64,000 bases of DNA, taken from positions 18,290,001 to 18,354,000 of the forward strand of contig NC_043012.1 in assembly GCF_006345805.1 (NCBI RefSeq). The letters are read 5' to 3'. A model generated the notes under the pieces. The model saw nothing but the letters and a program-made list of their open reading frames with translations. It ran no database searches and was not told the origin of the DNA. The position numbers and the translations under genes were made by a program. Every line of letters begins with the position of its first letter. Position 1 is the stretch's first letter. Of the stretch, positions 40,803 through 56,527 are shown in pieces. The stretch comes from Octopus sinensis. Its lineage: Eukaryota.

Positions 40803-41544
40803 GTGCAGTGTCCAACAATTTCCGACCTGTGGGCTTATGTCGAACAACTGCTGTCACGTGTGGGACGAGTCGGTTTATCAGCTGAGTCTATCGTCAATAT
40901 TGTCACGCCTCCTTCCTTCAAACGGGAAGGAAGAGCTATTTTCATCATCCTTGTGGCTATGGCGAAAGAATGTATCTGGTGGACGCGTCTGAAAGGATTG
41001 GAGACAAACACTTTCCTCTCTGGTCAATCTCTCATCAACTTCTTCAAGTACCACTTGAACAGGAAAGTGAGAGTAGAGAGGCAAGTTTTGTCTAGCGAAT
41101 GTTTTAAAAAAAGATGGGTGAATGTAGCAAGAATGGCACGTATGAATGACGAAGCCACCTTGAGCATGATCCTATGAACCCAGAAATTGAAATCAGAGAG
41201 TTGCTTATTCGCAAAAAAAAAAGAAGAAATATAACATGTGACTCCATTGACCGAGGTTACCGTGGTCTTTACTGTAGACTTTTCTTTCCACGGGTAAACC
41301 TCACCTGTCCTCCCCTTTACACTTCATATTGACATTTCTGTGATAACGATCCCTATTGATCAATTTTTTTTTTCCTCTCCACCTTTTTTTTAACCCCCCC
41401 TTTTTTTGTCCTCTTTCTCTCCTTTTACGATCCCTTTTGATCGAAACTCCCCATTCCTTTTTTTTTTTAAACCTTCAAAAGAAAAGCTCTACCTTGTAAT
41501 TTGTTCTATCTGTGTGCAGCCCTGTGTGGCTAATAAAGAAACAT
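40801..41544 (+). mobile_element. L1/Tx1-clade LINE copy 1: 5'-truncated, ORF2 C-terminus plus complete 3'UTR, embedded in (TCTA)n
   Basis: ORF 40803-41177 is near-identical to 63320-63979. A pyrimidine-rich 3'UTR ends ..ggctaataaagaaacat and runs straight into (ATCT)n with no poly(A). Confidence 0.92.
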
Positions 41545-41612
41545 ATCTATCTATCTATCTATCTATCTATCTATCTATCTATCTATCTATCTATCTATCT
41601 ATCTATCTATAT
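41545..41612. repeat. (ATCT)n microsatellite, 3' flank of LINE copy 1
   Basis: Read directly. Confidence 0.95.
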
Positions 41613-41615
41613 CTC

Positions 41616-41994
41616 TCTCTATATAAACGGCAGTTTGTCTGTGCGTGTTTCTGTGTGTCTGTTTGCTTGTACCCTCACCCTAACCACGGCTTTCAACCGA
41701 TTCTGATGAAACTTGACACACCCATAGCCCAATGTCATAATTCAAAACTAACGCAGCGACAATTTTGAAAAGTTCCCCCAGTTCTGAAAAGAATCGATAA
41801 ATTCGACATGGGGTCGAGAATCAGAAACACAAACCGCAAACTGTCTAGGGGACGCAACTCCACCTTTTTTTACTCTCAAAAAAATTTACCATCATTTTTT
41901 TCCATTTTTTTGCTATTTTTTGGCTATAACCCTCCAAAAATGCTTTATAGTTATTTCCCTTACAAACCTGAGCAACGCCGGGCGATACTGCTAG
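41616..41994 (+). mobile_element. Non-autonomous Helitron
   Basis: 5' TC(T)ATATAAA start, GTCT/GTGT-type simple repeat, aaccgattctgatgaaacttg motif typical of non-autonomous Helitrons, 3' hairpin cctgagcaacgccggg, then CTAG (41991-41994) followed by T. Confidence 0.85.
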
Positions 41995-42011
41995 TATATA
42001 TATATATATAT

Positions 42012-53720: not shown

Positions 53721-55617
53721 GAACTTTTTTCCGCTGATTGTTCTTCGATACGAAAAAAATCAACAATCTTCCGTCTCAATACAATTGTCACTGAATGTTG
53801 TTTTTATTGTATTTACTACAGATTGCTTGAGGCTAACTTTATTCCTATACCTCGATCATTGGATCTTACATTTTTATATGTGTATGTGTGCGTTTTGTGT
53901 ATGTGTGTGTTATATTCAGGGTGTGTTTATGTGTGAATATTATAATTAATACTGGAGTAGTTACTAAGTTGATTCGAGATTCTTCACAAGACAATGAGTG
54001 ATTTGTTTATTATATTGGCTGCAAATTTATCTACGTCTATTTATATATCTCTTTCGAGCGACAGTTGTCCGTGTTTCACTTTACATTGAGAAATACGATT
54101 ACAATTCTGCATTTCTATATTTCCCATAGCAACGAATATATTCCAAATTACTTCAGAACAAATTCATTCCTCTAATCAAACACTGATGCACTTGTATGGA
54201 TACTGCCTTAAGCTTTCAAAATAATAGTTCCATTCATAATTTTTGATACATCTATTGCAGTCAACCTTAATGTTTCATTGGTTGTTTATACATCAGGTGT
54301 TATATATGTTTTTTTATTATTTCATATGGAGTACATATAAATCGCTTTTGTTTATTATTTCATCGATAAATGATGCACAAATTTGCATGCATGATTCATA
54401 GAGAGACTTACATAATGAAACAACCAAAACATGTATTTACACACTTATATTCATTGTTACGTCTTCTGATACGAGTAATTTGTGTGTGTGCATGCATGTA
54501 TTACACAGACATATATATAAGCTATCACATACAGACACGTATACACACATATATACATATCTACACAAACTCACACACACACACACACATATATATACAT
54601 GTATGTATGTATATATGCCATTCAGGTTATTTCCAGGTTTATCGCCAACAGAGAAAAAAACTGTTTCTAATCTAGATACAATTTCTTTCATTGGGGCATG
54701 TATGTATGTATCTATGTATGTATATGTGTTTGTCTGTGTATGTGTATATGTATGAATGTATGTATGTGTGTTTGTCTGTGTATATCTATGAATGTATTTA
54801 TGTGGATGAATGGAAGGACAGACGGGTTTTTGTATGAATGGCTGGTTGGATTCATATAAATTTGGAACAAAGATTGTAAATTTGTGATTCACTGCGAATT
54901 GTGTTTGGTATTTCAAACTTCTATTACCAAGGTTACTCAGGTTTACAATTCCATCATCCAACTAAAATTTCTATTTTGTAATGTTGCTTGCCACTGAATT
55001 GAAACCTAGACGAGTCTACATTGGTTTATGTATTAATCTCCGTCTTGAGGTCGGTACCCTGTATGCATATGCTTCGGATATAAATTTTATCCTAATCGGA
55101 ATTCATCCTAATCGGAACCCTTAGAATTCATCACATGAATAGGTAATATGAAATACTTTTACGCACCTTATGTTTATCAAACCAGTTTTCCGGGCCGTGT
55201 CTCTTTACTAAGAGGAACTGCACAATAGTATGATAAATTATCTTTGCATCGTATCGAACGAGAGTTACGTTCTGGAAAGTAATGCTTCACTATACAACCC
55301 GCTGAGTGAGATACCAGATTCCGGTGTCTTTAATTATATCGTTACTGTTTCATTTCAGTGGATTCAGTAACTTATAAATAATAGAGATAAATCACAATAT
55401 ATTTAAAATTCCGTCCAGGTGGGTTTTGTCTGTAGGATATGAGAAATATACCTCTTAATTTTATGTGCGTATCTTGTTTCATTTGTTACGTATTGCCATC
55501 GTAAAACATAAAGTGAACTTACATGCGTTCATAACCGTGATAAACTGCATATGTATGAGCTTGCATAGTAGTGAGGGATCATCTGCAATCGTTTTACGCT
55601 GTATCTGGTGTTATTTA

Positions 55618-55950
55618 TTTATTCTTTTCTACTATAGGCATAAGGCCCAAAATTTTGGGGGAGGTGGCAAAGTCGAACTCGGATGAATTTAAACTTAGAA
55701 CGTATTGATAGACGGAGTACCTATTTCTTTACTACCCACAAGTGACTAAACACAGAGGGGACAAACAAGGACACGCAAACGTGTTAAGTCGATTACATTG
55801 GCCCCAGTGCGTAACTGGTACTTGCTTAATCGACACCGAAAGGATGAAAGGCAAACTCGACCTCGGAGGAATTTGAACTCAGGACATAACGGCAGACGAA
55901 ATACCGGTAAGCGTTTCGCCCAGGGTGATAACATTTCTGCCTGCTCACTG
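55618..55950 (-). mobile_element. Two-unit MetaSINE-like SINE: full unit with tail B joined to a partial unit with tail A
   Basis: Reverse complement: head...core...ttgtgggtagtaaagaaata|ggtactccgtc...cgactttgcc..cccccaaaattttgggccttatgcctatagtagaaaag. Junction at 55722/55721. Confidence 0.8.
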
Positions 55951-56297
55951 ATGTTAATTATTTATGCAATTTCAAACTTATGATTATTGTTAAAATTCCT
56001 CTCTGAAATGAAGGTTGCAAATGACAAGGAAAAGATATTTCCGAAGGATTTTGGCTATAGTTTCCGCAAATACACATGCATAACACAGCAATATCTTGGA
56101 AAAGAGCATCCAAATATACGAGACTTTGTAGTTTAATATAATGTTGCTCAATACAATGTCAAGTATCAGAAGACATTTGAAGACTGACTTGGAAATATTG
56201 TGTTTTAATCTTGTCTTTACAATGTATTTTTATTTACACACACACACACACACACACACACACACATACACACATATATATATATAATATATAGAAG

Positions 56298-56527
56298 GCG
56301 GCGAGCTGGCAGAAATGTTAGCACGCCGGGCAAAATGCGTTGCCGTAGTTCGTCTGCCGTTACGTTCCGAGTTCAAATTCCGCCGAGGTCGACTTTGCCT
56401 TTCATCCTTCCGGGATCGATAAATTAAGTACCAGTTACGCACTGGGGTCGATGTAATCGACTTATTCCGTTTGTCTGTCCTTGTTTGTCTCCTCTGTGTT
56501 TAGCCCCTTGTGGGTAGTAAAGAAATA
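56298..56527 (+). mobile_element. Well-preserved MetaSINE-like SINE with tail B (Tx1-like 3' end), in (TA)n
   Basis: ggcggcgagctggcagaa.. box B-like gagttcaaattcc, core gactttgcctttcatccttccgggatcgataaattaagtaccag, tail tctgtgtttagccccttgtgggtagtaaagaaat. Confidence 0.9.

Follow-up and report, generated by a model that had tools for sequence, protein, structure and literature searches.

Two interspersed repeats in a 64,000-nucleotide stretch of the Octopus sinensis genome (NCBI RefSeq assembly GCF_006345805.1, contig NC_043012.1, positions 18,290,001 to 18,354,000 of the forward strand; hereafter the window) raise the question of which long interspersed element (LINE) mobilises a given short interspersed element (SINE). 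One is a truncated LINE of the L1/Tx1 type and the other a SINE with a tRNA-like head, and their 3' ends are alike. An earlier note, made from the letters of the window, proposed that the SINE had exchanged an unrelated tail (tail A) for the shared one (tail B) and now uses this Tx1 family or a close relative. We found that the main feature lies beyond the view of the window: it is a different LINE family, F2, that inserts into the SINE itself. The window LINE (family A) is a cousin of the likely SINE partner, not the partner.

LINE F2 inserts into the SINE

The octopus genome was searched with related proteins, which gave, beside family A, the Tx1-like families B, C, and D and an F lineage (F1, F2, F3, and older forms), the last being reached via a decayed copy. 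F2 is about 5.3 kb long and has a zinc-knuckle open reading frame 1 (ORF1; zf-CCHC above the cut-off) and an intact ORF2 of 1,134 amino acids (aa) with an APE-type endonuclease, a reverse transcriptase (RT), and a C-terminal zinc motif. The closest solved relative of F2 ORF2 was LINE-1 ORF2p (E value of 2e-64, versus 2e-20 for R2), in a comparison that separates the L1 group from R2, other LINE clades being absent from the table. The ORF2 products of A, C, and D were 80 to 83% identical to one another, 71% identical to that of B, and 55 to 59% identical to those of the F lineage; F1 and F2 were 73% identical. F1 and F2 were grouped at 100 in a quick tree of the genome families and mostly unnamed homologues, among which none of the named Tx1 elements Tx1L, Keno, Kibi, and Koshi occurred. 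Families A, C, and D were found in (TATC)n repeats and family B in (ATT)n repeats.

The best 40 copies of F2 were 98 to 100% identical. When 20 of its 3' flanks were fetched, 19 contained the SINE body from the same base onward, reading on as the tail-B type, and the remaining one held an F2-like 5' end. At the expected 5' ends in 20 regions, the SINE head stopped at the same base in 19 (one end was missed), and it did likewise at locus L424. F2 is inserted on the same strand as the SINE, between its A-box-like and B-box-like motifs, with a 16-nt duplication; the corresponding site is intact in the full-length SINE of the window (Table 1), and in other SINE copies it is duplicated by F2 and entered by tail-B SINEs. 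In the eight F2 copies with both ends available, the first base of the 16-mer agreed in all eight, and private variants were present on both sides in two. The SINEs flanking F2 were on average 91% identical, with one duplicated pair, and these differences indicate that the F2 copies sit in separate targets. No young 5'-truncated F2 copies were found, as the 19 regions fetched for them all continued as LINE. One contig from sequencing runs crosses the F2 5' join by 31 letters, which adds little.

We additionally examined the SINE in 1.9 Mb not chosen for SINE or F2 content. This census contained 187 SINE bodies, comprising 81 with tail B, 44 with tail A1, 27 with tail A2, and 35 unclassed. The F2 target site directly followed the tail in 19 of 81 tail-B SINEs and in 0 of 71 tail-A SINEs (Fisher P of 2e-6), and the same comparison in 400 kb taken blind, where 24 tail-B copies correspond to about 60 per Mb, gave 5/24 and 0/27. 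Among the 36 SINE joins from all loci, 28 led into tail-B units, 6 into tail-A units, and 2 into unclassed units. Adjacent tail-B units had a mean identity of 0.898, compared to 0.891 for unlinked copies, a few low values depressing the mean. At L459/L406, an older SINE holds a tail-B unit that itself contains F2, and 16 nt are duplicated there. Away from arrays, 34 tail-B copies had a head and a non-SINE flank, and duplications of 12 to 20 nt were detected in 25 of these; the duplication began with N[AG]TA in 19 of the 25, versus a background of 6%. The dispersed tail-B insertions thus show an N[AG]TAT preference that resembles the F2 site. An insertion signature shared by the tail-B SINE and the F lineage is therefore present. 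The direct observations are a tail and a type of hairpin common to both, the presence of F2 at a single site in many different SINEs, and tail-B SINEs at the same site.

Table 1. Positions of the SINEs, the LINE, and their parts in the window
Feature	Position	Strand	Remark
Full-length tail-B SINE	56297-56526	+	tRNA-like head, body, tail B
A-box-like motif in SINE head	56307-56317	+	read by eye
B-box-like motif in SINE head	56371-56381	+	read by eye
16-nt target site	56344-56359	+	between the A and B boxes; unoccupied in this copy
SINE tail B end	56493-56525	+	F-type hairpin, 5-nt loop (56507-56511)
20-nt duplication flanking SINE, 5' copy	56274-56293	+	in TA-rich DNA
20-nt duplication flanking SINE, 3' copy	56527-56546	+	in TA-rich DNA
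Tail-B SINE	55722-55946	-	from 55721, rest of an older tail-A SINE, beginning at the target site
Two tail-B SINE units	22518-22880	+	joined at about 22724 at the target site
Tail-A1 SINE	8305-8507	-	inverted-stem hairpin (loop 8322-8326), then ATT repeats
Family A LINE copy, L1/Tx1-like	40802-41541	+	5'-truncated, 740 nt (ORF2 C terminus and 3' untranslated region)
Family A 3' tail	41509-41541	+	4-bp hairpin, 6-nt loop (41522-41527), then AATAAA
(TATC)n repeat, 5' side of LINE	40680-40801	+	target
(TATC)n repeat, 3' side of LINE	41544-41613	+	

The box-like motifs were recognised by eye; ARAGORN and Rfam gave no match on the SINE head. A second entry site was seen in the A-box-like region of the head (L393, L403, L414, L419, and L249); it had been entered by 4 of the 75 ends of tail B, by a single old-F copy, and by a single copy of a further family, E.

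Tail B and the window LINE

The tail comparison in the earlier note was reproduced. The LINE and SINE ends of the window agreed without gaps at 27 of 33 positions, and the match faded upstream (32/43 and 35/53). The best unrelated place in the window reached 21/33 against the LINE end, and 200 shuffles of the LINE end reached at most 23. The two other tail-B copies cited matched the LINE end at 25/33, and both are located at SINE-SINE joins at the target site. A small hairpin can be folded in both the LINE end and the SINE end, as had been claimed. The origin of tail B from the L1/Tx1 lineage was likewise upheld, no other LINE type in the examined DNA having such a tail.

The seven Tx1-like groups that were detected all have a 3' end composed of a T-rich run, a small GC hairpin, and AATAAA. 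This motif was used to choose 17 ends, and all 17 keep the three inner hairpin pairs, with pairs 2 and 3 showing double (compensatory) changes. Families A to E have G-C as the third pair, in place of which the F lineage and SINE tail B have C-G, and tail A has G-C as the second pair. The combination of a C-G third pair with a 5-nt loop was seen only in the F lineage and SINE tail B, whereas family A has a 6-nt loop and a G-C third pair. We measured the fit over the last 66 nt against four natural tail-B copies, with shuffles scoring at most 44. F1, F3, old F, and E scored 57 to 84 (57 to 76 for F1, F3, and old F alone), followed by C (51 to 57), F2 (45 to 54), and A (40 to 51); in the ungapped 33-nt measure, the F2 end equalled family A at 27/33. 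Insertion targets are more decisive than the tail for naming the partner.

The same tail type ended 30 of 30 fetched genomic copies of family A, so it is not a peculiarity of the single window copy. Family A is abundant, and intact ORF2 copies exist; its longer genomic copies contain endonuclease, RT, and zf-RVT domains, the endonuclease being of the APE type and the zinc motif C-terminal. A Pfam search of the window ORF2 end gave no match. In the tested copy, which is decayed, the family A ORF1 gave no zf-CCHC domain match, although it aligns to a related ORF1. Named homologues of the window LINE were from cephalopods, and a protein atlas search returned generic endonuclease-RT clusters only. 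TATC-type repeats lay 3' of 28 of 30 family A copies and, in the 10 copies truncated within the query, on the 5' side as well. In contrast, TATC repeats followed 0 of 81 tail-B SINEs, and the comparison of flanks that the earlier note had suggested thus gave differing insertion signatures. Families A, C, and D are thereby excluded, except in the case that their proteins become less specific when acting in trans. The choice of this Tx1 family as partner was consequently not borne out, the hairpin types also differing, and the phrase "close relative" holds only loosely, since F and A ORF2 products are 56 to 58% identical. The tail motif of family A would be an inheritance from a common ancestor, with family A itself a (TATC)n specialist. 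Families C and D, whose tails match better than or similarly to that of A, were rejected for their identical (TATC)n target. Family E gave the best tail match, yet it lacks ORF2 and was set aside as a fellow passenger.

A proposed cycle and its alternatives

Judged from the sequences, the F lineage is probably the mobiliser of the tail-B SINE, with F2 or its direct ancestor involved. The SINE, carrying an F-lineage 3' end, would be copied by an F-lineage ORF2 protein that recognises the 3' hairpin and A-rich end of the RNA (stringent recognition) and whose endonuclease would nick at the start of (G/C)GTAT. Because the SINE body contains a good match to this motif, SINE RNA would often insert into another SINE copy, and because the new complementary DNA would be homologous to the target, the 5' join would be mostly seamless, giving arrays of the form head-body-tail-body-tail. 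As the SINE grew abundant, F2 specificity may have narrowed to the SINE site. We also favour, with somewhat less assurance, a closed loop in which an animal L1/Tx1-type LINE mobilises a tRNA-like SINE via a shared 3' hairpin and inserts only into that SINE, splitting its RNA polymerase III promoter. The SINE would offer tens of thousands of safe landing sites, inherit the same aim, build its own arrays, and be disabled where the helper lands, while sister families would apply one RNA-recognition hairpin to different DNA targets, namely, (TATC)n, (ATT)n, another repeat, and the SINE.

Several results weigh against this cycle or its parts. The tail indicates the F lineage and not F2 in particular, as F2 scores about as family A does and below F1, F3, and E. 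The best F2 copies are far younger than the tail-B SINEs, which are 89% identical pairwise, and it must hence have been an ancestor or a sister of F2 that made the majority of the SINE copies. The predicted hairpin pairing was high in ten ends, 0.3 to 0.55 in six, and 0.01 in F1, and the hairpin is to that extent weak. The 16-nt duplications of F2 were identical in only 3 of 8 copies, with 8 mismatches in 128 bases, which exceeds what the youth of the LINE predicts; part of the 5' copy may be derived from RNA. Three older F2-like copies (92 to 94%) were seen in searches that return the closest copies only. Two truncated F2-like copies of older age, L043 and L394, have the SINE at the 3' side but no SINE head at the 5' side, and another older one, L317, lies outside any SINE. 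Among adjacent array units, 3 of 28 pairs were at least 97% identical and shared private variants, indicating that arrays also grow by local duplication or by the copying of multimers. Priming on RNA that reads through an array could account for part of the N[AG]TA preference at the start of the dispersed duplications.

Some of these points would be accommodated if tail B was given and mobilised by an F family of loose specificity, either older than F2 or a sister to it (F3, old F, or an unseen parent of E), F2 being a later hyperparasite that uses the SINE as a landing site only. The tails of F1, F3, old F, and E are closer to tail B than that of F2, SINE B is older than the sampled F2 copies, and F3 and old-F copies lie in varied flanks. 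However, F3 flanks mostly start with AT, E flanks start with AGA or GAG, and F1 is often in another repeat (11/23), and none of these fits the tail-B insertion start, (G/T)(G/A)TAT, as the F2 site does. Some close tail-B copies are moreover 96 to 99% identical, which suggests a recent source. We consider this alternative unlikely, though it is the one to be taken most seriously.

Mobilisation by window family A, or by its (TATC)n-targeting sisters C and D, is very improbable. Family A equals F2 at the very end of the tail, is abundant, and has intact ORF2 copies, but the mismatch of targets largely refutes it, its hairpin is of another type, and its 66-nt scores are below those of F1, F3, and E. 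A similarly slim chance attaches to an origin of the pattern without any F2 targeting, in which a master copy lay in one SINE, the head-LINE-body unit spread as a composite, and arrays arose by local duplication. In favour of such a composite are the uniform 5' join of F2 in all copies, the inexact duplications, the two truncated copies without a SINE head, and a 5' variant of the 16-mer that is found again and again, in 5 of 20 F2 copies, as if carried by RNA. Against it, the SINEs around F2 have 91% identity and the LINE copies 98 to 100%, private variants are repeated on both sides of single F2 copies, and neighbouring units of an array mostly differ from each other as much as copies at unlinked places do. 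We therefore retain the F lineage as the probable mobiliser of the tail-B SINE.

Other tails, known systems, and further repeats

Where the earlier note had counted two tails, at least three kinds were found (B, A1, and A2). Tail A had been called unrelated to tail B; it shares the CTTGT loop of tail B, on a stem that is inverted, and tail A1 matched the ends of 11 loci with ORF1 only above shuffles, with the inverted stem in 10 of the 11. Tail A2 had no clear match. (ATT)n repeats were beside the 3' side of 17 of 44 A1 SINEs and 1 of 81 tail-B SINEs and beside the 5' side of 10/17 and 1/48, respectively. The tail-A1 SINEs are older (74% pairwise identity versus 89% for tail B). The proposed tail swap thus stands as likely, while its unrelated source does not, as both tails are probably of the Tx1 type: the SINE body has likely passed from one tail to a related one, its target changing with the tail. 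In the examined DNA, a search for an autonomous LINE with tail A returned SINE fragments and ORF1-only elements only. Candidate partners of tail A are a Tx1-type family that targets (ATT)n, B being one, or another (ATT/TAA)n specialist, of which we take Dong to be an example.

The ORF1-only group (L231 to L310) is large and diverse, with 12,781 first-look candidates, and its tails are of two or more types that match those of the B and A1 SINEs. Two of its families, E and a second, carry the tail motif of the lineage. In family E and its relatives, no ORF2 directly followed ORF1 in 20 of 20 long regions, and in L277 and L285 the distance from the ORF1 match to the tail was 0.9 to 1.4 kb. These families, which have only an ORF1-like zinc-knuckle protein, resemble HAL1, an ORF1-only nonautonomous LINE derived from the L1 clade (PMC5786205). 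No tails came closer to B and A1 of the SINE than those of the octopus ORF1-only elements, whereas the accessible portion of that paper names no HAL1 with a tail in common with a SINE.

The usual view is that LINEs of the L1 type in animals recognise poly(A) and no specific tail. The octopus elements present a whole animal L1/Tx1-type radiation with a covarying 3' hairpin borrowed by SINEs and ORF1-only elements, and they are thus relevant to the question of an ancestral origin of stringent recognition in this group. They also point to what likely drives a SINE that occurs about 60 times per Mb. The parasite SINE and its likely helper LINE would be each other's tool and landing site, and the system lets one ask whether the effect of a LINE on the parasite is to limit it or to feed it. 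The intact, recently active ORF2s are 56 to 83% identical and differ in target, which in one case is a defined site of 16 nt, and the change of endonuclease target is directly testable.

Sharing and swapping of tails between SINEs and LINEs are established (PMC4824008). Among the 58 SINE/LINE pairs in Table 1 of Ohshima 2013, three have L1-clade tails, namely, maize ZmSINE2 and ZmSINE3 and Chlamydomonas SINEX-3 (PMC3747384; PMC3472496); that table lists no animal L1/Tx1 pair and no octopus pair (PMC3747384). The shared 3' end, small stem-loop, and compensatory changes seen here are also features of the stringent pairs described by Ohshima 2012 (PMC3472496). The nearest parallel in insertion is Tx1-Mar and SINEU of crocodilians (Kojima 2015, PMC4494074), where a LINE and a SINE share a target in a multicopy element and SINEs occur in tandem, as in the octopus. 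However, their target is a third element, Mariner-N4_AMi, whereas the octopus target is the SINE itself, and SINEU has a U1/U2-derived head and a poly(A) end, with no shared tail reported in the available text, in contrast to the tRNA-like head and structured shared tail of the octopus SINE (PMC4494074). Families A, C, and D, in (TATC)n, and B, in (ATT)n, resemble the microsatellite specialists Kibi and Koshi, with different repeat units, and F1 and F2 resemble Tx1L, which enters another mobile element, with different targets; for Kibi, Koshi, Tx1L, and Keno, the available text of PMC4494074 names no SINE target. An octopus repeat annotation contains 80 L1-Tx1 families, 13 of them recently active, and in its accessible portion gives neither tails nor targets (PMC13282606). 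No published LINE that targets the SINE with which it shares a tail was found in the literature, with most subscription papers and Repbase, Dfam, and SINEBase outside the scope, so entries may exist.

The octopus SINE is presumably OR1/OR2. It was set beside them by description only, in that a tRNA-like head, a common body, and alternative tails are found in both. The octopus CORE-SINEs OR1 and OR2 are named in PMC4824008, PMC4758252, and PMC5804259, which name no partner LINE in the parts available.

Among the other Tx1-like families, B (L081 to L126 and L171 to L200) has an intact ORF2 of 1,145 aa and is followed by (ATT)n, often with another copy in tandem, and C and D (L127 to L130 and L201 to L212) are further intact (TATC)n families. 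F1 (L318 to L340 and L401) has an intact ORF2 of 1,132 aa and is followed in 11 of 23 loci by a recurring repeat, which we guess to be Helitron-like, or by tandem copies. Another repeat family, ending in (ATT)n (L066:3933, L078, and L169), lies beside RT matches of about 25% identity; it is possibly a non-Tx1 LINE and has no visible likeness to tail A.

In the window, two further family A pieces, at 42177-42860 and 63299-64000, have near-identical starts, and the former breaks off just past the stop codon, where TATC-type repeats follow. The TATC run of the LINE is directly followed by a repeat at 41614-41900, which may be a nonautonomous Helitron-type element by its appearance. Decayed pieces of older Tx1-like elements lie at 9905-11300 (minus strand) and 1311-1639 (plus strand), with 46 to 54% identity to intact ORF2s.

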